From a virus: 38,923 bases of DNA. Position 1 is the stretch's first letter. The number at the start of each line of letters is the position of its first letter. The stretch is taken from UHGV virus genome UHGV-0153024; one strand, given 5' to 3'. Both the position numbers and the translations under genes were made by a program. A model generated the notes under the pieces. The model did no database searches, had not been told where the DNA came from, and saw only the letters and a program-made list of their open reading frames with translations. Positions 2,177 to 30,044 of the stretch are shown in pieces.

Positions 2177-2707
2177 TTACCTTAATTTATCAAGCTCTCG
2201 TTTATTTCTTTTATCATGTATATCATTAAGAAATAATATATTACTAGCAATGATACTAAATAACGCTATTATTTGTAGATATACTAATAACGCTGTGATA
2301 AAAAATCCAAACTTGCAGAACACGTGCTTATGCAAGGAAATGAAATCCAGATTTGAAAATATAGGTTTCGTTAAATTTATTATAACAATAGAAAATATTA
2401 CAATAGCTGAAATTATAATGGTTTTCACTATCAGCGTAATTCGCTCAATATCTTTTTCTGTTTCCTTATGATAGTTTATACTAGTTATTGTTGATGGCTT
2501 TACAATTGAACTTACAGCTGCAGGGTAAATATATGCAAGCCAAATACCTGCAATAGTGAAGATCATTGCAGAAATGTTTTGCAAGGTAGATAAAATATCT
2601 TTTATATCTGCATACGTATATTTGTCTCCGAACAAATAAGCAATAGCTATAATTGTTAGGAGAAAACATATGTGCAAAATTTTAGGTTTTATAATCATAC
2701 TATGCAC
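2177..2707 (-). CDS. Small integral membrane protein (176 aa, about four predicted TM helices); candidate RexB-like effector
   Basis: Four hydrophobic segments (ILHICFLLTIIAIAYLF; AMIFTIAGIWLAYIYPAAV; ITLIVKTIIISAIVIFSIVIINL; FGFFITALLVYLQIIALFSIIASNILFL); very AT-rich; start overlaps the upstream 400-aa gene by 8 nt. Confidence 0.6.
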   Translation of the reverse strand: MHSMIIKPKILHICFLLTIIAIAYLFGDKYTYADIKDILSTLQNISAMIFTIAGIWLAYIYPAAVSSIVKPSTITSINYHKETEKDIERITLIVKTIIISAIVIFSIVIINLTKPIFSNLDFISLHKHVFCKFGFFITALLVYLQIIALFSIIASNILFLNDIHDKRNKRELDKLR

Positions 2708-3902
2708 CTATTTTATGAATCTGCACTGCTGTATCATTATCAGCTTCTGGTTGTTCTATTATATCTTCATTTTTAAAACAATTCACCAAATCATTTCTAT
2801 GAGCTTTTACCACACTCATTAAATATGAAGAAGAGTAATGTTTGTTTCTGTTAGAAAGGTCAACGTGAATTTCATGGCGATAAACATATTCATCTAACCA
2901 AGTAGTTGAACCATTTTTCCCATTTATTTTGAATCCGATGCGTGCGTGATCATTCCCTACATTCTCATTGTTGTTTTCTGTATCTTCTGAAATAGGATTG
3001 TGGTTTTCTATATATTCATCGATGAGTTTAGTGAACTCTTCAGGCGTAGGCGTTCCTTCGACTAATAATTCAACGCGATGTTTTTTTGATAAAATAGGAG
3101 AGCTTCTTGAGAAAACATCTCCAACTGCATCAAATAACTTCTGCCATTTTTCCCGTGTATCAGGTATGTTTGTTTCTATTACGTCATGGTAAACAATGTG
3201 AGTGATTTTTTTACACAGTTCTTCTATGTTTGCTCCACTCGTGATCATCCTTGTTTGTTTAGTCTGTACTTTAAAAACTAAACTTTCATCATCACCTTGA
3301 GAAAAAAGAACACGTTTGTAATGAACGTCTTCAGGTGAGTCATTACGAGGACGAGTCATATCTATGACTTTTTTATTAGGATGCTCCATCCTAAAGTCAA
3401 CGTATGCTTTAATATAATGACAGAAAAGATCTGTATCCGTATTAGAACTTGGGAATCGTATGGATGCAATTTTGTTATATTCTGGAATTACCCAATAGTA
3501 GCAAGGTACGCCCCAGATATATTTACCGCCACCTTGAGTATCAGAGGCGGATACAACATTATCTGAAGTGCCGTCAATCTTACTTTCAGCATCTATACCT
3601 TGAATATTTCCAGAGTTATCACCAAGCGTTTTCCAGATAACAAATAGATAATCTCCTGTCGTACTGTCATATGAAATATTTTTACAGTATGCTTTTGTTC
3701 TTCTATTATTATCCTTTCCCCATGGAACAGATTGTTCAACTGTTCTTGAACAGATCCAGCTATGTAAGTTACACAGAACATGGGATAAGTTCTTTTCGAC
3801 TAATTCCGGCGATTTGCCTTGTCGTATTTTATAAAGGCCAAACATTTCTAAATCAAAAAATGTTATAATGCCGCGTTCAGTTTTAAAGTTGGTTTTACTC
3901 AT
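2700..3902 (-). CDS. Hypothetical protein (400 aa), first gene of the repressor-linked cargo operon
   Basis: Long AT-rich ORF directly downstream of, and co-oriented with, the CI-like repressor; purine-rich RBS (GAAGAGAAG) upstream of the ATG; no recognisable catalytic motif by eye. Confidence 0.65.
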   Translation of the reverse strand: MSKTNFKTERGIITFFDLEMFGLYKIRQGKSPELVEKNLSHVLCNLHSWICSRTVEQSVPWGKDNNRRTKAYCKNISYDSTTGDYLFVIWKTLGDNSGNIQGIDAESKIDGTSDNVVSASDTQGGGKYIWGVPCYYWVIPEYNKIASIRFPSSNTDTDLFCHYIKAYVDFRMEHPNKKVIDMTRPRNDSPEDVHYKRVLFSQGDDESLVFKVQTKQTRMITSGANIEELCKKITHIVYHDVIETNIPDTREKWQKLFDAVGDVFSRSSPILSKKHRVELLVEGTPTPEEFTKLIDEYIENHNPISEDTENNNENVGNDHARIGFKINGKNGSTTWLDEYVYRHEIHVDLSNRNKHYSSSYLMSVVKAHRNDLVNCFKNEDIIEQPEADNDTAVQIHKIGA

Positions 3903-3982: not shown

Positions 3983-4864
3983 TTAATTCGAAATGATTGT
4001 GCTTCTTATGCATGCAACTACCTCGATATCAGAAAATGCACATTCAAAGTAAGTTTCTTTACTTCTGATATTTATCATACCTTTAGGTAGCCTAGTAATT
4101 TGTCTGACGGAATAGGTTCCATCAATATTAATTAACCAGTATCCATCTAATACATCAGAAAATTTCTGATCACAGATGTATGCCACTAAACCATCCTGAA
4201 CGACAATTGGTGCTGAAAGATTAGCGGGTAAAAATGACGAATCGAAAATATATGAGCCACTCTCAACCATTTTGCCTGCATTGAGATGAAATTTAGGCAG
4301 TTCTTTTACCGATGTTGTGAGAGCATTGTGCTCGCTGCCTTGTCCAGTGGCTAGCCATAAAAGAGAATTTCCTGTTTCCAACGAACATTTTATGATCCAA
4401 TCAGCCGGGAATGTGTCTCGCAAATATCTATTTGCCATAGTGCTTTTAGATACATTCAGATGGTCGGCAAGTTCTTGTCTTGTTTTAAAGCCATACGCTT
4501 TCATTAGCCTGTCTATTGCATCACGTCCGCCTGAGTCAAAATTCAGATCGTTCCCAATTGGGGACTTCAGGGTGGTGGCTTGGGAAACGTGCTGAACCTT
4601 TGATGCAGTTGCCTTTGACATGACCGGAGCCTCAGTACTCTGAGGGAATGGTACGCCTTTTCCGAATGAGAGCCACTCGATAGATGCACCCGTTTCAATT
4701 GCACACTGAATTACCCAGTCAGCAGGAAATACGTCACGCATCCAGCGCGTGCCCATAGTGCTTGCAGATACGTTGAACTGTTCGCACAGAGCTTGCCTTG
4801 TCTTGAATCCATACGCTTCAAGCATGCGCGTTATGACTGCTTGTCCTCCGTTTTTGAAATTCAT
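3983..4864 (-). CDS. CI-like immunity repressor with tandem-duplicated N-terminal DNA-binding domain
   Basis: 293 aa; two similar ~60-aa segments (MLEAYGFKTRQALCEQFNVSASTMGTRWMRDVFPADWVIQCAIETGASIEWL and LMKAYGFKTRQELADHLNVSKSTMANRYLRDTFPADWIIKCSLETGNSLLWL) resembling the phage 186 CI-type HTH; divergent from the Apl/Cox-like gene. Confidence 0.75.
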   Translation of the reverse strand: MNFKNGGQAVITRMLEAYGFKTRQALCEQFNVSASTMGTRWMRDVFPADWVIQCAIETGASIEWLSFGKGVPFPQSTEAPVMSKATASKVQHVSQATTLKSPIGNDLNFDSGGRDAIDRLMKAYGFKTRQELADHLNVSKSTMANRYLRDTFPADWIIKCSLETGNSLLWLATGQGSEHNALTTSVKELPKFHLNAGKMVESGSYIFDSSFLPANLSAPIVVQDGLVAYICDQKFSDVLDGYWLINIDGTYSVRQITRLPKGMINIRSKETYFECAFSDIEVVACIRSTIISN

Positions 4865-23325: not shown

Positions 23326-24220
23326 CCTTTCGCAGTTGCCTGCGCCGCAGATTGTGGATGTGCCGGACTTTGAGACGCTGCTTGCCGAACGCAAGGCCGA
23401 ATTTGTTGCGCTTCATCCGAAAGATGAGCAGGAAGCAGTGATCCGCACGCTGGAACTGGAATCTGAACCCGTCACCAAATTGCTTCAGGAGAACGCTTAC
23501 CGTGAGTTGCTTCTGCGCCAGCGCATTAACGAAGCCGCGCATGCTGTGATGGTGGCTTACGCGATGGGCGGCGATCTTGACCAGCTCGCTGCCAACTACA
23601 ACGTGAAACGCCTGACGGTGACGCCTGCTGATAATGACGCTGTGCCACCCGTTGCGGCTGTGATGGAAAGCGATGAAGCGTTACGCCTGCGTGTGCCTGC
23701 GGCTTTTGAAGGGCTTTCGGTTGCGGGGCCAACCGCAGCTTATGAATTTCATGCCCGAAGCGCCGACGGTCGGGTGGCGGATGCCAGTGCAACCAGCCCG
23801 GCACCTGCAGAGGTGGTGCTTACGGTCCTAAGCCGTGAAGGCGACGGAACAGCAGAAAAAGACCTGCTGGACGTGGTGGAAAAAGCTCTGAACAGTGAGA
23901 ACGTTCGCCCGGTGGCTGACCGTCTGACGGTTCGCAGCGCAGAAATCATCCCGTATCGCGTGGAAGCCACCATTTTTCTCTATCCGGGGCCGGAAGCAGA
24001 GCCGGTAATGGCAGCGGCAAAAGCCAGCCTGCAGAAATACATCGCCAGTCAGACGCGGCTTGGTAGGGATATTCGCCGTAGCGCCATCTTTGCCGCCCTG
24101 CATGTTGAGGGTGTGCAGCGTGTGGAGCTGGCTTCGCCGCTGGCGGATGTGGTTTTGAACAAAACGCAGGCGGCATCATGTACGGAGTGGAGCGTGACCA
24201 ACGGGGGAACGGATGAATAG
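23312..24220 (+). CDS. J: Baseplate protein J (P2 gpJ-like)
   Basis: Start at MAVIDLSQL with AGGAG upstream gives 302 aa, the same as P2 J. Confidence 0.85.
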   Translation: MAVIDLSQLPAPQIVDVPDFETLLAERKAEFVALHPKDEQEAVIRTLELESEPVTKLLQENAYRELLLRQRINEAAHAVMVAYAMGGDLDQLAANYNVKRLTVTPADNDAVPPVAAVMESDEALRLRVPAAFEGLSVAGPTAAYEFHARSADGRVADASATSPAPAEVVLTVLSREGDGTAEKDLLDVVEKALNSENVRPVADRLTVRSAEIIPYRVEATIFLYPGPEAEPVMAAAKASLQKYIASQTRLGRDIRRSAIFAALHVEGVQRVELASPLADVVLNKTQAASCTEWSVTNGGTDE

Positions 24221-24818
24221 TCTGCTGCCATCGGGGTCAACTTCACTGGAGCGCCGACTGGCGCAAACGTGCAGCGGGATTTCTGATCTGCAGGTGCCGC
24301 TTCGTGACTTGTGGAATCCGGCAACCTGTCCGGTCAGTTTCCTGCCTTATCTCGCCTGGGCGTTCTCTGTGGATCGCTGGGACGAGGGTTGGACAGAAAG
24401 CGTCAAGCGCCAGGTGGTGAAGGATGCTTTTTATATTCATCAGCATAAAGGGACCGCCAGTGCCGTGCGGCGGGTGGTGGAGCCGTTCGGATTCCTGATC
24501 CGCATTATTGAGTGGTGGCAGACCGGAGAAACACCGGGCACGTTTCGCCTGGATATCGGCGTGCAGGACCAGGGCATCACTGAAGATACCTATCTGGAAC
24601 TTGAGCGACTGATAAGCGATGCCAAACCATGTAGCCGCCACATGATCGGCATGTCCATCAATCTGCAGACCAGCGGCCCGCATTGGGTGGGAGCCGCCAG
24701 CTATCTTGGCGAAGAAATCACGATCTATCCGTATATCAACGAAACGATTATTTCTGGTGGCACCGCGCATGAAGGCGGGGCGGTCCATGTTATTGACACA
24801 ATGAGAGTGAATCCATGA
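24213..24818 (+). CDS. I: Baseplate protein I (P2 gpI-like)
   Basis: 201 aa; between J and H. Confidence 0.8.
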   Translation: MNSLLPSGSTSLERRLAQTCSGISDLQVPLRDLWNPATCPVSFLPYLAWAFSVDRWDEGWTESVKRQVVKDAFYIHQHKGTASAVRRVVEPFGFLIRIIEWWQTGETPGTFRLDIGVQDQGITEDTYLELERLISDAKPCSRHMIGMSINLQTSGPHWVGAASYLGEEITIYPYINETIISGGTAHEGGAVHVIDTMRVNP

Positions 24819-25876
24819 GCACAAAATTTTATACCCTGCTGACGGATATTGGCGCGGCGAAACTTGCCAGCGCCCCCGCGCTCGGTGTGCCGCTAAAAAT
24901 TACCCATATGGCGGTGGGCGATGGCGGTGGAGTATTGCCAACGCCGGACGCAAAGCAGACGGCACTGGTAAATGAGAAACGCCGGGCTGCGCTGAATATG
25001 CTTTATATCGACCCGCAGAACAGCAGCCAGATTATTGCCGAACAGGTGATCCCTGAAAACGAGGGCGGTTGGTGGATACGTGAAGTGGGCTTGTTTGATG
25101 AGTCCGGGGCATTGATTGCCGTGGGCAACTGCCCGGAAAGCTATAAGCCGCAACTGGCTGAAGGTAGCGGGCGCACTCAGACCGTGCGCATGGTGCTGAT
25201 TACCAGCAGCACGGACAATATCACCCTGAAAATCGACCCTGCTGTAGTGCTGGCAACCCGCAAGTATGTGGATGACAAGGCACTGGAGCTGAAGGTTTAC
25301 GCGGATGATCAGATGGCAAAACATCTTGCCGCACCGGACCCGCATTCACAGTACGCGCCAAAAGCCAGCCCGACATTTACCGGAACCCCCAAAGCGCCAA
25401 CGCCAGCGGCGGGGAATAATACCACGCAGGTTGCGACCACTGCGTTTGTACAGGCGGCACTGACGGCCCTTATTAATGGTGCGCCAGCCACGCTGGACAC
25501 GCTGAAAGAAATAGCCGCAGCCATTAACAATGATCCGAATTTCAGTACCACCATTAACAATGCGCTGGCACTAAAAGCACCGTTGTCGAGTCCGGCACTC
25601 ACCGGAACGCCAACAGCCCCCACGGCGGCGCAGTCGGTCAACAATACACAGATTGCCACTACGGCTTTTGTGAAATCGGCGATTGCAGGAATGGTGGGTT
25701 CTGCACCTGCTGCACTGGATACACTGAACGAACTGGCGGCGGCACTGGGGAATGATCCGAACTTTGCCACGACAATGCTTAATGCGCTGGCAGGTAAACA
25801 ACCGCTGGACAATACGCTTACCAATTTGAGTGGAAAGGATGTAGCTGGTCTTCTCACATACCTTGCTTTAAGATGA
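24815..25876 (+). CDS. H: Tail fibre protein H, N-terminal (constant) part only, 353 aa
   Basis: Strong resemblance to the first ~350 aa of P2 H (AAKLA, MAVGDGGG, ESYKP.LAEGSGR.QT.RMV, DTLNELAAALGNDPNFATTM.NALAGKQP) but terminates after LTYLALR; P2 H is about 670 aa. Confidence 0.8.
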   Translation: MSTKFYTLLTDIGAAKLASAPALGVPLKITHMAVGDGGGVLPTPDAKQTALVNEKRRAALNMLYIDPQNSSQIIAEQVIPENEGGWWIREVGLFDESGALIAVGNCPESYKPQLAEGSGRTQTVRMVLITSSTDNITLKIDPAVVLATRKYVDDKALELKVYADDQMAKHLAAPDPHSQYAPKASPTFTGTPKAPTPAAGNNTTQVATTAFVQAALTALINGAPATLDTLKEIAAAINNDPNFSTTINNALALKAPLSSPALTGTPTAPTAAQSVNNTQIATTAFVKSAIAGMVGSAPAALDTLNELAAALGNDPNFATTMLNALAGKQPLDNTLTNLSGKDVAGLLTYLALR

Positions 25877-25965
25877 GAGTAGTAAACCCCTGTCCCGACG
25901 CCATGATACTATCGACTCATGACTCCTGAGTGTGTACCATTAACACAAAAAAATTGAGGTACATA

Positions 25966-27048
25966 ATGAAAAAAGTATTGATAGTTAGCTTGGTGGGCAT
26001 CGGAGATCACTTATTATCACGAGTATTCATGAAATCACTCCGCGATGATGAAAAATATAAGCACGCTAAATTCACCTTGCTTGGCAACACTGCATTCAAA
26101 GATTTTTCTCTCAAGTTTGATATGAATATATTTAATCATTTCATTTGGGTTGATTGTAATAAGGTTACTCCTTATGTGCAAACCAAAGAGAGCACATATA
26201 CTAAGATTAAAAATAAAGCCATCAGGTTTTACATCAGAAATTTAATTAAGCACTCAAATTTCGATGAGATTATAGTTCCAGATTGGTGGGGTGCGTCAAC
26301 TACTTTGCGTGTTACTCCATTTATCTCTAGTGTGAGGGATAGAGCCATCATCAATGGTATGAATATACCTGACCATCAAAGGGAGTTTTTTGGCTATTCC
26401 ACAAAGCCGGATATTGATTTTTCAAAGCATGTCCTGGATATGAATAAAGAGTTTTTCTCTGAGATTATACCATTTCCTAAATTCGAAGTTGAAATTCCAC
26501 TAAAAAATAAAAATAAAGACAGTGGCAAGATTGATATTTGCATTTCACTGGGAGCCTCTGCGCCTTTTAAAAAATACCCTGTATTACAATTAGCAAATGT
26601 AATAAACAGCATATCATCTTCATACAATGCCAATTTTAAAATCATTGGCTCCAATGATGAAATTTCAGATTACAATGTTCTTATTGAGCATATCGATAAC
26701 AAGGATATTGTAGCAGGTTTTGTTGGAAGGACTACATTATCTGAGTCGTGCGATATTGTTCTTTCATCTGAACTTTTGATTGCAAACGACACAGGCATGT
26801 TCCATGTTGGTGCTCTGGCAGGGATTAAAACTGTTTGTATTTCGAATGGTACTGGTTTGCATGCATTTGTGCCATACCCTGAGGAATTTTCGAACTGTAT
26901 TACGGTTTTCCCACCAGAGATACAAAACAAGGTAGGCACAAAAGATTTTATAAATGCACATGGCTGGTCTGGCTCAGCAATTCCGATGTCGAATATATCA
27001 CCAGACGATGTTCTTGCGGCTTGTTATAAATTGCTAAATAAAAAATAG
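25966..27048 (+). CDS. Glycosyltransferase family 9 (heptosyltransferase-like)
   Basis: GT9-type motifs: N-terminal KVLIVSLVGIGDHLL (cf. WaaC ILIVKTSSMGDVLH), central GASAPFKKYP, C-terminal ELLIANDTGMFHVGALAGIKTV (cf. VSVDTGLSHLTAALDRP); AT-rich; RBS GAGGT 5 nt before the ATG. Confidence 0.7.
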   Translation: MKKVLIVSLVGIGDHLLSRVFMKSLRDDEKYKHAKFTLLGNTAFKDFSLKFDMNIFNHFIWVDCNKVTPYVQTKESTYTKIKNKAIRFYIRNLIKHSNFDEIIVPDWWGASTTLRVTPFISSVRDRAIINGMNIPDHQREFFGYSTKPDIDFSKHVLDMNKEFFSEIIPFPKFEVEIPLKNKNKDSGKIDICISLGASAPFKKYPVLQLANVINSISSSYNANFKIIGSNDEISDYNVLIEHIDNKDIVAGFVGRTTLSESCDIVLSSELLIANDTGMFHVGALAGIKTVCISNGTGLHAFVPYPEEFSNCITVFPPEIQNKVGTKDFINAHGWSGSAIPMSNISPDDVLAACYKLLNKK

Positions 27049-27058
27049 ATGAAGTAAT

Positions 27059-27454
27059 TCAAGCTGGCTTTTCCGGCCAGCTAATCTCTGCATTAGTGTT
27101 AGCGTCAATCCTGCTCAGCAATACCCGGTATTGCTTCCACAATGGCAGCGCTACGGTTTCTGCATCTGTCGCCATACTCAAATCAACAGCATCCTGTAAA
27201 ACGCTAATCTGTTGTGTCGCCTCACTCATCAGTGCGTTTTTTGTAGCCAGATTATTGGCTATTTTCTGCTGTTTTGCTGCCTCAAGTTCTTTATTAGTTG
27301 GCGGTGGCGCACTAAAAACATCGTTATCGTAATGCCAGCCGATACCAACACCATCGGTAGAGAGAATGGCACTTGCTGATTCAGGCCACTCTGACTCGCC
27401 ATCCCAGATAACAATATTTTCTACGATACCATTTTTGATAATTGCATAGTTCAT
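27059..27454 (-). CDS. Tail fibre assembly protein (Tfa-like chaperone)
   Basis: C-terminus LPLWKQYRVLLSRIDANTNAEISWPEKPA matches the conserved Tfa C-terminal motif (cf. lambda Tfa ...[22 protein letters not shown]...). Confidence 0.7.
   Translation of the reverse strand: MNYAIIKNGIVENIVIWDGESEWPESASAILSTDGVGIGWHYDNDVFSAPPPTNKELEAAKQQKIANNLATKNALMSEATQQISVLQDAVDLSMATDAETVALPLWKQYRVLLSRIDANTNAEISWPEKPA
27062..27082. terminator. Hairpin (AGCTGGC-loop-GCCAGCT) between the convergent GT9 and Tfa genes
   Basis: 7-bp stem with loop TTTTCCG, 14 nt after the GT9 stop and abutting the Tfa stop; candidate bidirectional terminator. Confidence 0.4.
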
Positions 27455-28135
27455 TTACGCATACTCCAAAATAATAATCACGCCAGCATTGCCCGGGTTG
27501 CCGTTGACATTCTGCGCCCCACCACTGGTTGCAGCGCCATTACCACCAGCACCATACCCACCAGGGCCAGAAATAAAGCTGCCGCCGCCAAGACCGGAAC
27601 CTACAGTCCCTCCGACTGCTGTTGGGGTTGCCATCACACCGGGTAGCCCGGCGTACCCGTTGCACAAAAGGGCACCCACGGTCGAAGTGCCACCCTGACC
27701 GCCCATGCCACATGACGCAGAGGAACCTGACGCGGTGCAGCCGTTGCCTGGCTGGCCTCCACCTGCTGAGAGATAAGAGCCAAAAGTCGTCGTGCCGCCC
27801 TGTGTACCATTGGTTATCGTCGACGCAATACCGCCATTACCACCCGCACCAATCGTGACAAGCACGGTTGATATCGCAGACAGGTTAAAGAGACCGCGTG
27901 CCATTCCACCGCCACCACCACCGCCACCCGCTGCGTTATAGTTTCCTGTGGAAGTTGCCCAGCCGCCGCCCCCACCGCCCCCAATAGCGATGACATCCGC
28001 GAACATTGCTCCGGGAGTTTTGGTGTAAGTGCCAGACGTCTTGATTATCTGCATGCCAATCAGACGACCGACTGCGCCGTTATTTACTAAACCAACGTTT
28101 ATGAAAATGCAGAGATAACGGCTAACTGGCATCAT
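27455..28135 (-). CDS. Glycine-rich tail fibre distal (receptor-binding) segment, inverted relative to H
   Basis: 226 aa with long poly-Gly/Gly-rich repeats; directly upstream of the co-oriented Tfa; adjacent to the DNA invertase, as stfE-tfaE-pinE in e14 and the Mu G segment. Confidence 0.65.
   Translation of the reverse strand: MMPVSRYLCIFINVGLVNNGAVGRLIGMQIIKTSGTYTKTPGAMFADVIAIGGGGGGGWATSTGNYNAAGGGGGGGGMARGLFNLSAISTVLVTIGAGGNGGIASTITNGTQGGTTTFGSYLSAGGGQPGNGCTASGSSASCGMGGQGGTSTVGALLCNGYAGLPGVMATPTAVGGTVGSGLGGGSFISGPGGYGAGGNGAATSGGAQNVNGNPGNAGVIIILEYA
28080..28107. other. Candidate Hin/Gin-type recombination (crossover) site
   Basis: TTATTTACTAAACCAACGTTTATGAAAA has the AAACC-NN-xGTTT core and flanks resembling hix/gix sites; lies 50 nt upstream of the invertase gene, inside the 5' end of the inverted fibre ORF. 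Confidence 0.35.
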
Positions 28136-28156
28136 CTCCGGTTTTTATTCAGGGGG

Positions 28157-28729
28157 ATGATCATGCTTATTGGCTATGTACGCGTGTCAACAAATGACCA
28201 GAACACCGATTTGCAACGCAATGCACTGAACTGTGCGGGATGTGAGCGGATTTTTGAGGATAAAATCAGTGGCACCAAGTCCGACAGACCGGGGCTGAAA
28301 AAGCTGCTCAGGACACTATCGGCAGGAGACACGCTGGTTGTCTGGAAGCTGGACAGACTGGGGCGCAGTATGCGGCATCTTGTTACGCTGATAGAAGAGA
28401 TGCGCCAGCGTGGCGTGAATTTCCGAAGCCTGACTGACAGTATTGATACCAGCACCCCAATGGGCCGTTTCTTTTTTCATGTCATGGGTGCCCTGGCTGA
28501 AATGGAACGCGAACTGATAGTTGAACGTACCAGGGCGGGGCTGGCTGCAGCTCGTGCTAAAGGCAGAGTAGGTGGACGCCGTCCTAAGTTGACCAGCGAA
28601 CAGTGGGCACAGATTGGGCGTTTACTCGAGGCCGGAGAATCAAGACAGCGTATTGCACTGATTTTTGATGTAGGCGTTTCTACCATTTATCGAAAATTTC
28701 CGGCAAATAAGAACAATAAATCTCCCTGA
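28157..28729 (+). CDS. Serine DNA invertase (Hin/Gin/Pin/Cin family)
   Basis: 190 aa; N-terminal catalytic motif MLIGYVRVSTNDQNTDLQ (active-site Ser), conserved core, C-terminal HTH (VSTIYRKF). Confidence 0.9.
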   Translation: MIMLIGYVRVSTNDQNTDLQRNALNCAGCERIFEDKISGTKSDRPGLKKLLRTLSAGDTLVVWKLDRLGRSMRHLVTLIEEMRQRGVNFRSLTDSIDTSTPMGRFFFHVMGALAEMERELIVERTRAGLAAARAKGRVGGRRPKLTSEQWAQIGRLLEAGESRQRIALIFDVGVSTIYRKFPANKNNKSP

Positions 28730-28871: not shown

Positions 28872-30044
28872 ATGGCTCAGGATTACCACCACGGGGTGCG
28901 CGTTGTTGAAGTCAACGAAGGCACCCGAACCATTACCACGGTGAGCACCGCCATCGTGGGTATGGTCTGCACGGGCGATGATGCCGATGCAAAAATGTTT
29001 CCTCTTAATAAACCCGTGCTGATCACTGATGTGCTGACTGCCAGCGGTAAAGCGGGTGAGTCAGGCACGCTGGCTCGTTCGCTGGATGCCATCGCTGACC
29101 AGGCAAAACCCGTGACCGTTGTTGTGCGTGTGCCGCAGGGTGAAACGGAAGAAGAAACCACGACCAATATCATCGGAGCAGTGACCGCTGAAGGTAAAAA
29201 AACAGGCATGAAAGCCCTGTTATCTGCCCAGTCACAGCTCGGCGTTAAACCGCGCATTCTCGGCGTGCCAGGTCACGACACGAAGGCGGTAGCTACTGAG
29301 TTGCTGAGCGTGGCGCAAAGCCTGCGTGGATTTGCTTACCTGTCAGCGTATGGTTGCAAGACAGTGCAGGAAGCAATCACTTACCGTGAAAACTTCAGTC
29401 AGCGTGAAGGAATGCTGATCTGGCCCGACTTTACTGGCTGGGACACGGTGCTGAATGCCGAAGCAACGGCTTATGCCACCGCCCGTGCGCTTGGTCTGCG
29501 CGCCAAAATTGACGAGCAGACCGGATGGCACAAAAGCCTGTCCAACGTGGGCGTTAACGGTGTCACCGGAATTTCTGCTGATGTGTTCTGGGATCTGCAG
29601 GACCCGGCAACCGATGCGGGACTGCTGAACCAGAACGACGTCACCACCCTTATCCGCAAAGACGGTTTTCGCTTCTGGGGTTCCCGCTGCCTGAGTGATG
29701 ACCCGCTCTTTGCCTTCGAAAACTACACCCGCACGGCGCAGGTGCTGACGGACACGATGGCAGAAGCGCACATGTGGGCGGTGGATAAACCGCTGAATCC
29801 GTCGCTGGCCCGCGACATTATCGAGGGTATCCGCGCCAAAATGCGCAGCCTGGTCAGTCAGGGCTATCTCATTGGTGGTGATTGCTGGCTGGATGAGTCG
29901 GTGAACGACAAAGACACGCTGAAAGCCGGAAAACTCACCATCGACTACGACTACACGCCAGTGCCGCCACTTGAAAACCTGATGCTGCGTCAGCGCATCA
30001 CCGATCAGTACCTGGTGAATTTCTCCAGCCAGGTCAGCGCGTAA
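28872..30044 (+). CDS. FI: Tail sheath protein (P2 gpFI-like)
   Basis: 390 aa (P2 FI about 396 aa); RBS AGGAGG upstream. Confidence 0.9.

Follow-up and report, generated by a model that had tools for sequence, protein, structure and literature searches.

Surveys of programmed inversion name tail fibres among the targets of such rearrangements (PMC9881135). The closest described systems are the G segment of phage Mu with its invertase Gin, to which the C segment of P1 with Cin can be added, and the P segment of e14 with Pin. Here we analyse a segment of related design in the virus genome UHGV-0153024, a stretch of 38,923 nucleotides that is called the window throughout; it lies between tail-fibre gene H and a DNA invertase gene. 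We propose that it is probably an active one-armed ON/OFF switch of the tail fibre, of the Gin/Pin type, which carries a surface-glycan-modifying gene as cargo. Of the recombination architecture by itself we are nearly certain; on the role and the regulation of the cargo gene, a glycosyltransferase of family GT9, we are evenly divided. The features on which the argument depends are the following.

24815-25876, plus strand: tail-fibre gene H in its OFF form, 353 amino acids (aa) (open reading frame and PF12571)
25851-25876: left crossover site, TTCTCACATACC TT GCTTTAAGATGA, with the core TT at 25863-25864, at the very end of H
25863-28095: invertible segment, 2233 bp including both 2-bp cores and 2229 bp between the cores
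25966-27048, plus strand: GT9-family glycosyltransferase, 360 aa (PF01075; open reading frame 25930-27048)
27059-27454, minus strand: tail-fibre assembly chaperone Tfa, 131 aa (PF02413 and PHROG tail-fibre-assembly families)
27455-28093, minus strand: distal fibre tip, variable and glycine-rich, 212 aa (PF21722 and PHROG tail-fibre families)
28082-28107: right crossover site, ATTTACTAAACC AA CGTTTATGAAAA, with the core AA at 28094-28095
28163-28729, plus strand: Gin/Pin-family serine DNA invertase, 188 aa (PF00239 and PF02796; open reading frame 28157-28729)

As in Mu G, a small serine invertase, here 73% identical to Gin, stands directly downstream of the segment; the sites are 26-bp dyads with a 2-bp core from which the variable genes are read inward; and the left site lies inside the fibre gene, giving a constant N-terminus and a variable C-terminus that is followed by the chaperone. 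The Mu-type division into a constant N-terminus outside the segment and a variable C-terminus with its chaperone inside it is thus present. The feature that defines the Mu G type, two tip-chaperone sets on opposite strands, is not: Mu carries S/U and S'/U' and alternates its host range, whereas this locus has one tip and one Tfa, and the other arm consists of a 3-codon stub and a glycosyltransferase gene. Because only one arm encodes a tip, the switch is not one of host-range alternation, although the recombination chemistry is the same. The initial annotation of this DNA had assigned the region to the host-range segments of the Mu G, P1 C and e14 P type; the invertible fibre segment is borne out by the reciprocal junctions described below, and the alternation of host range fails on the single tip. 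The sites differ as well, since those of Mu are 34-bp perfect inverted repeats and those found here, with inner half-sites GCTTTAAGATGA and GGTTTAGTAAAT, are far less symmetrical.

The P segment of e14 shares the invertase family, and the GT9 cassette is also found behind the constant part of StfP in a Mu/e14-like module. Inversion in e14, driven by PinQ, flips a prophage fibre and alters the phage sensitivity of the host through the chimeric fibre StfE2 (PMC12529663); both arms there encode fibres and the effect comes from the chimera, whereas the second arm here is an enzyme gene. Of the same prophage lineage are the canonical segments of Escherichia phage 500465-1 (Wadgaonvirus) and of a prophage in E. 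coli CE0011b, whose constant part of H, invertase and outer half-sites match at 98-99.8% DNA identity; up to the core, H is 99.8% identical to that of canonical two-arm relatives. Both segments differ from the window in having a tip and a Tfa on each arm, identical inner half-sites GGTTTGGGAGAA and no cargo gene. The GT9 gene therefore occupies the slot in which these relatives keep a second tip and Tfa, as had been suggested.

P2 has a cargo hotspot between genes G and FI, where a P2-like prophage of CFT073 carries the acyltransferase gene neaT and where invertases are often found (PMC3573123; bioRxiv 10.1101/2024.10.15.618418). The GT9 gene fits hotspot 2 (Z/fun, moron position 2) by its place between the fibre-assembly gene and FI, and it resembles neaT in being a low-GC, phyletically rare, envelope-related gene and in that the cargo, in the ON state, opposes the tail genes. 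It differs in that neaT was described as a fixed insertion without an invertase, whereas the GT9 gene sits within the segment and flips together with the tip. In Xenorhabdus, P2-like tailocins (xenorhabdicin) bear glycosyltransferases amid exchangeable or invertible fibre modules, with a probable 4.6-kb inversion, and the authors propose that modification of lipopolysaccharide (LPS) gives self-resistance to the encoded receptor-binding domain (bioRxiv 10.1101/2025.04.19.648921). That system belongs to another genus and a tailocin, with other glycosyltransferase families, several fibre modules, no invertase and a crossover without base resolution. No account of a Gin/Pin-type fibre segment with a GT9 or acyltransferase gene in it came up in full-text literature searches. 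The recombination system is textbook; the novelty lies in an architecture with one fibre arm and cargo, which recurs with two different envelope-modifying enzymes and has passed from one prophage family to another.

The order of the locus is I, H, GT9, Tfa, glycine-rich tip, invertase and FI, with all five focal open reading frames present as first annotated. H consists of 349 constant residues and a terminal Leu-Ala-Leu-Arg-stop supplied by the crossover site; in the Pfam profile comparison PF12571 covers residues 1-150 only and the distal domain is absent, so that H is indeed an N-terminal part, with the tip and Tfa encoded on the opposite strand. The minus-strand open reading frame at 27455-28135 codes for the tip only over 27455-28093, its first 13 codons falling outside the segment. 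The tip and the C-terminal part of WP_254841574.1, a fibre of 562 aa, are 100% identical; the tip had no tblastn match among 50,697 phage records, within which the identity of Tfa to any phage Tfa does not exceed 41%. The invertase, named at the outset as a member of the Hin/Gin family, matches PF00239 (E=6e-53) and PF02796, in keeping with the N-terminal catalytic domain (Ser9/10) and C-terminal helix-turn-helix of the small Din-family (Gin/Hin/Cin/Pin) invertases of about 190 aa; it can be aligned with Mu Gin over its full length (3UJ3, E=2e-92; 138 of 188 residues identical) and contains the catalytic motif YVRVSTNDQ; its start is most likely at 28163 (MLIGYVRVS, as in Gin) and not at 28157.

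Both crossover sites are inverted, imperfect 26-bp dyads of 12-bp half-sites around matching 2-bp cores. The right one had been proposed as a candidate at 28080-28107; it is real, with its 26 bp at 28082-28107, and its gix/hix layout was compared with gix sites taken from the Mu genome NC_000929. The partner, which the initial annotation could not locate, is at 25851-25876, where a loose central-motif search returned ATACCTTGCTTT at the extreme end of H. The last three bases of this site are the stop codon of H, which is thus held by the inner, "cargo-end" half-site. Self-similarity cannot single out the left site, which is why it had been missed; it is established through comparison with related genomes. 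When the region was compared by megablast with 5,426 complete E. coli genomes, the flanks with H and the invertase were found in many prophages and the middle part, with the GT9 cassette, in only 5 genomes; homology breaks at 25860-25863 (query 1046-1049) and at 28095-28107, within both proposed sites. The self-alignment for inverted repeats that had been advised gave, as its best repeat near the right site, a misleading 14-mer. This perfect 14-nt inverted repeat, CGGCGCAGTCGGTC (25626-25639 and 28066-28079), has one copy in the shaft of H and the other 15 nt inside the right core. It was rejected as the crossover, since the reading frames differ and it lies 224 nt upstream of the true breakpoint; nor is it conserved, the right copy carrying a T-to-C change in loci L001, L002, L007 and L009. 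It is probably due to chance.

Inversion of 25863-28095 in silico, at the 2-bp cores, joins ...GLLTYL to GLVNNGAVGRL... in frame and gives a 562-aa H-tip fibre, which settles the check for an in-frame fusion. The fusion is identical at 547 of 562 positions to the annotated E. coli fibre WP_254841574.1, and all 15 differences lie in the constant part. The reverse arrangement is found in a P2-like prophage of E. coli strains EC21Z-137, CT29 and NH-21, where a 562-aa "phage tail protein" is followed by Tfa and the GT9 gene lies on the other strand, adjoining the recombinase. This supports the earlier supposition that inversion is needed for a functional fibre, and the same fibre occurs in E. coli genomes.

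Both orientations are found among twelve related P2-like loci, three with OFF junctions and nine with ON junctions. The OFF loci read TTCTCACATACC TT GCTTTAAGATGA and, where the contig extends to the right end, TTTTCWTAAACG TT GGTTTAGTAAAT; the ON loci show the reciprocal junctions, some with a 1-nt variant in an outer half-site. In OFF, the outer half-site of H is joined to GCTTTAAGATGA and that of the invertase to GGTTTAGTAAAT, and in ON the two inner half-sites are swapped. The outer half-sites are fixed in place and the inner ones exchange exactly at the TT core, a pattern characteristic of conservative exchange by a serine recombinase. The length of the segment is constant across nine loci in both orientations. 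The 24 contigs read for the commonest GT9 allele include 16 P2-like copies in ON and five in OFF, a tally that counts undisplayed similar places along with their representative. The assemblies include one pair, L005 (CP170318.1, ON) and L006 (CDRURL010000001.1, OFF), that is 100% identical over 8.2 kb (3 kb of left flank, the 2229-bp segment and 3 kb of right flank, with orientation normalised) and differs by orientation alone; the switch has therefore flipped recently. Their invertase shares 184 of 188 residues with that of the window. From these sequence comparisons we conclude that this lineage has a genuine switch, which was flipped very recently; the opposite orientation, which the initial annotation could only postulate, exists. 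Neither left junction turned up as an exact pattern in the JGI metagenome contigs. In draft assemblies some contigs end close to the cassette; this was discarded as a sign of mixed orientation, because repeated insertion sequence (IS) and invertase copies account for it equally well.

Two of the related loci have changed further. In NH-21 (L008, CP148034.1, 3638-4800) an IS3-family transposase gene stands in the position of the invertase, of which no remnant is detectable; this copy is presumably locked with the fibre ON unless another Pin works in trans. L010 (DAZCDO010000001.1, 2934-5000) is rearranged, the GT9 end being joined to a third kind of outer half-site, CATTTTCAAAGG; its neighbours are an unknown 140-aa open reading frame, a truncated second invertase (48% identical, residues 1-101) and a further tip and Tfa fragment, and the window-type invertase is reduced to its last 14 codons.

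The cassette is mobile as a unit. Across the P2-like prophages L001-L009 the GT9 segment is 98.2-99.8% identical, whereas the flanks (H/I and invertase/sheath) are 94.7-96.8% identical in most pairs; in the Mu/e14-like context the segment is still 99.8% identical. That the segment is more conserved than its flanks indicates that the cassette has recently moved horizontally as a whole, by exchange at the crossover sites. In E. coli TUM14664 and 102651 the GT9 cassette stands behind an StfP stub in a Mu/e14-like module beside rclABC, joined exactly at the core. An ON-state GT9 cassette was not found in that context: the loci reached through the 309-aa fibres P0024 and P0026 have another Tfa and lack GT9. 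The search with the tip also revealed a sister cassette of 2459 bp, in which the tip is 92-94% and Tfa 82% identical to those of the window and an acyltransferase-3 gene (381 aa, 36.5% GC) replaces GT9 in the same slot and orientation; its cargo-end half-site, GCTTTAAGATGG, is near-identical to that of the GT9 cassette. The sister cassette was found in three places: a tail module of the Mu/e14-like kind in Citrobacter (L021, CP056251.1), ON, with the acyltransferase disrupted by IS1; Mu/e14-like modules of E. coli, ON, which have lost the cargo-end site; and a different P2-like prophage of the same strains TUM14664 and 102651 (L039, NZ_CP135649.1 15208-24636; L040, NZ_CP189662.1 888169-897597), OFF, where inversion in silico gives an in-frame 488-aa fibre. 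These two strains hold both cassettes in different prophages, both with the fibre OFF.

A near-identical tip also serves as a fixed fibre in a third type of myovirus without an invertase, and the same tip stands opposite a gp53-like tip in a canonical two-arm segment (L037); it is plausible that the two-arm form is the ancestral state. Among species-representative genomes, a scan with the tip alignment gave 600 pattern hits of which none was confirmed, and a scan with the Tfa alignment gave only six distant loci, one of which (C. youngae) is canonical and two-armed. Two fixed fibres of the third myovirus type, in L024 (near 5431) and L029 (near 5338), retain intact crossover-like sequences at the junction of constant and variable parts, with outer half-sites of the P2-H or the StfP type; by their sequence they look like fossil traces of cassette exchange. 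In L024, L029, L036, L037 and L038 the tips are 96-99% identical to that of the window and are followed by one of two Tfa types, the 131-aa type of the window or one of 135 aa, which share only 39% identity. The pairing of tip and chaperone may accordingly be looser than usually assumed, or may depend on the conserved N-terminal WDG region alone.

The GT9 gene is, by composition and distribution, horizontally acquired foreign cargo, filling an arm usually given to a second tip and its chaperone. The GC content of H is 54.9% and that of tfa about 45%; it is 35.6% for the GT9 gene and 33-37% along its stretch. Translation most likely starts at the ATG at 25966, which has a GAGG ribosome-binding site and is also the start in the RefSeq annotation of related genomes. 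The protein scores 30.3 bits against PF01075 (cut-off 22, E=3e-7). Its AlphaFold model (predicted local distance difference score, pLDDT, 72.5; predicted template modelling score, pTM, 0.78) has the GT-B fold of two Rossmann domains, and the top Foldseek matches are the GT9 structure 3TOV, WaaF (1PSW) and WaaC (2H1H), with E values of 1e-12 to 1e-15; the N-terminal GD and the C-terminal NDTGxxH motifs align with 3TOV. The gene is a near-orphan, with a single 90%-identity cluster whose named members are all E. coli, and its next homologues outside this cluster are 24-31% identical. On the contigs of the three distant homologues that were examined, the gene has GT1, GT2, methyltransferase and pyruvyltransferase genes as neighbours, in polysaccharide clusters of cellular genomes. 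By tblastn against the 50,697 phage records, GT9 had no match. Two small elements bear on transcription around the cargo and the invertase.

25904-25912, plus strand: possible extended -10 element for GT9, TGATACTAT, inside the segment, recognised by eye only
28124-28153, plus strand: weak terminator-like hairpin with T-run, between the segment and the invertase gene

The hairpin lies outside the segment and is thus present in both orientations; an ON-state locus has it as well.

The sites, the in-frame fusion, the reciprocal junctions, the recent flipping, the mobility of the cassette between prophage families and the fold of GT9 are directly supported by the data above, and we propose the following mechanism around them. 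The invertase exchanges strands at the 2-bp cores of 25851-25876 and 28082-28107, in a reaction that may be Fis-dependent. In ON, the 349 residues of H are fused to the tip, with Tfa next, making the complete 562-aa fibre. In OFF, the state of the window, H enters the cargo-end half-site, reads Tyr-Leu-Ala-Leu-Arg and stops after Ala-Leu-Arg, with no co-oriented chaperone behind it; GT9 flips along with the segment. A lysogen induced in OFF would then release virions without a receptor-binding tip; these would presumably have no functional fibre, because the distal domain is missing and fibres fold from the C-terminus with the help of a chaperone. North et al. (cited in PMC9881135) are said to have found that fibre trimerisation begins at the C-terminal domain and is assisted by Tfa. 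GT9 would act as a lysogenic-conversion gene, probably modifying LPS or another envelope glycan, and the lysogen may thereby become resistant to the other arm's tip, in the manner suggested for the Xenorhabdus tailocins. We assume that it is expressed from its own promoter in either orientation.

Several points weigh against this proposal and have to be set beside the alternatives that draw on them. The phage gains no obvious benefit from a switch by which part of the population has its fibre disabled. Expression of GT9 in both orientations is an assumption for which no convincing promoter is predicted: a sigma-70 scan upstream of the gene gave no acceptable promoter in either orientation, the sole hit overlapping the start codon, and a scan for a terminator between the stop of H and GT9 found none. 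These scans would suit the main rival, a switch with two outputs, which alternates between tip plus Tfa and expression of the cargo, the latter being promoterless and transcribed only when it faces the fibre operon, in OFF. Further in its favour, Pin-driven inversion of a prophage fibre is known to alter a host phenotype (PMC12529663), the start of either cargo gene is some 100-130 nt away from the cargo-end half-site, with the gene reading inward like a tip gene, this half-site is common to two unrelated cargo genes, and the two strains that hold both cassettes have each of them facing the cargo way. We nevertheless consider it unlikely. The extended -10-like TGATACTAT lies inside the segment, and the two cassettes are probably of one ancestor, so that the shared gene orientation is not independent evidence. 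Late operons of the P2 type are silent in lysogens, and expression would thus come only in dying cells that are making tip-less virions. Moreover, the ON layout of tip, Tfa and convergent cargo is the ordinary layout of a moron at the P2 hotspot, as for neaT (PMC3573123). We likewise doubt the broader idea that GT9 and acyltransferase cassettes form a family of two-output phase switches coupling the making of infectious particles to a change of the cell surface, and rate it as improbable; if it were true, the tip on the other arm may have as its receptor the very surface that is altered, and defective Mu/e14-like prophages could have domesticated the switch for phase-variable LPS modification, in phage defence or kin discrimination.

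The remaining objections concern whether the switch works and what GT9 acts on. Compared with the reverse complement of the right site, the left site agrees in no more than 16 of 26 positions, a score that four other places in the window share. A Fis-bound enhancer, which in this family usually lies in the 5' part of the invertase gene, could not be confirmed: the gene has a strict Fis-like 15-mer centred at its nt 78, conserved at the same position in Mu gin, with no clear partner 48 bp away. The evidence for flipping is a comparison between assemblies. The first 120 nt of the invertase gene are more conserved than the remainder, for which protein constraint could account. Poor inverted repeats and a lone Fis-like element are what a dead relic might show, in which the window switch inverts no more, the truncated fibre is frozen and the orientation differences are old, and some relatives are in fact locked: L008 has an IS3-family element in place of the invertase, and in L010 the invertase is truncated. 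For the window itself this is very improbable, and the suggestion that its switch is locked or degenerate is not supported: the invertase and the outer and inner half-sites are intact and each is unchanged in loci of the opposite orientation (the pairing of outer half-sites seen in the window recurs only in L004 and L008), L005 and L006 differ solely by orientation over 8.2 kb, and E. coli usually has additional Pin-type invertases able to act in trans (PMC12529663). As for the substrate, GT9 failed the equivalog profiles of LPS heptosyltransferases I, II and III, with 15-36 bits against cut-offs of 135-569. Given that it travels with tip and Tfa as a 99.8%-conserved unit between unrelated prophage families, it might instead glycosylate the fibre tip or another virion protein, like the GT9-related protein heptosyltransferases. 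This we hold to be highly unlikely, since the gene lies on the strand opposite to tip and Tfa, antisense to the late transcript exactly when the tip is made; an acyltransferase-3, an enzyme type usual in the acetylation of O-antigen or glycans, can stand in for it; its more distant homologues belong to the polysaccharide clusters of cells; and in fixed fibres and canonical two-arm segments this tip does its work with no GT9 present. Hardly credible, finally, is a reading of the 353-aa H as a complete alternative fibre, with which the switch would still alternate two host ranges. Its open reading frame is intact, with a clean stop at the end of the crossover site; however, it holds only the PF12571 domain and shaft repeats common to every relative, without a receptor-binding domain or a co-oriented chaperone, fibre trimerisation reportedly starts from the C-terminal domain with help of Tfa, and the Mu/e14-like equivalent leaves about 98 codons that NCBI annotates as a truncated pseudogene.

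If the one-armed ON/OFF switch is the right reading, Gin/Pin-type host-range switches can lose an arm to cargo and become switches that turn the fibre on and off. Such cargo-bearing switches would carry surface-modifying genes between unrelated prophage families, exchanging them exactly at the crossover sites. Annotation pipelines label fibres of this kind as truncated or as pseudogenes, and predictions of prophage completeness and of host range err if orientation is ignored. The locus also offers a testable case of receptor-binding tips that travel with enzymes altering the matching receptor, and of a prophage invertase that may render envelope modification or phage infectivity phase-variable.

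The switch belongs to the tail module of a complete 186/P2-like prophage of E. coli, and the window also includes the integrase, a CI-type repressor, CII, replication and head genes, and tail genes through D. Landmarks outside the switch are as follows.

1065-2096: integrase
3983-4864: CI-type repressor
24213-24818: tail gene I
28872-30044: sheath gene FI

Between the integrase and the CI repressor, an overlapping pair of open reading frames on the minus strand (2177-3902; 176 and 400 aa) without Pfam matches may be additional prophage cargo. The P2 A/Q cargo hotspot has a candidate gene for anti-phage defence (11482-13059, plus strand), whose product of 525 aa bears an LA2681-like HEPN domain (PF18733) at its C-terminus and matches TPR weakly.

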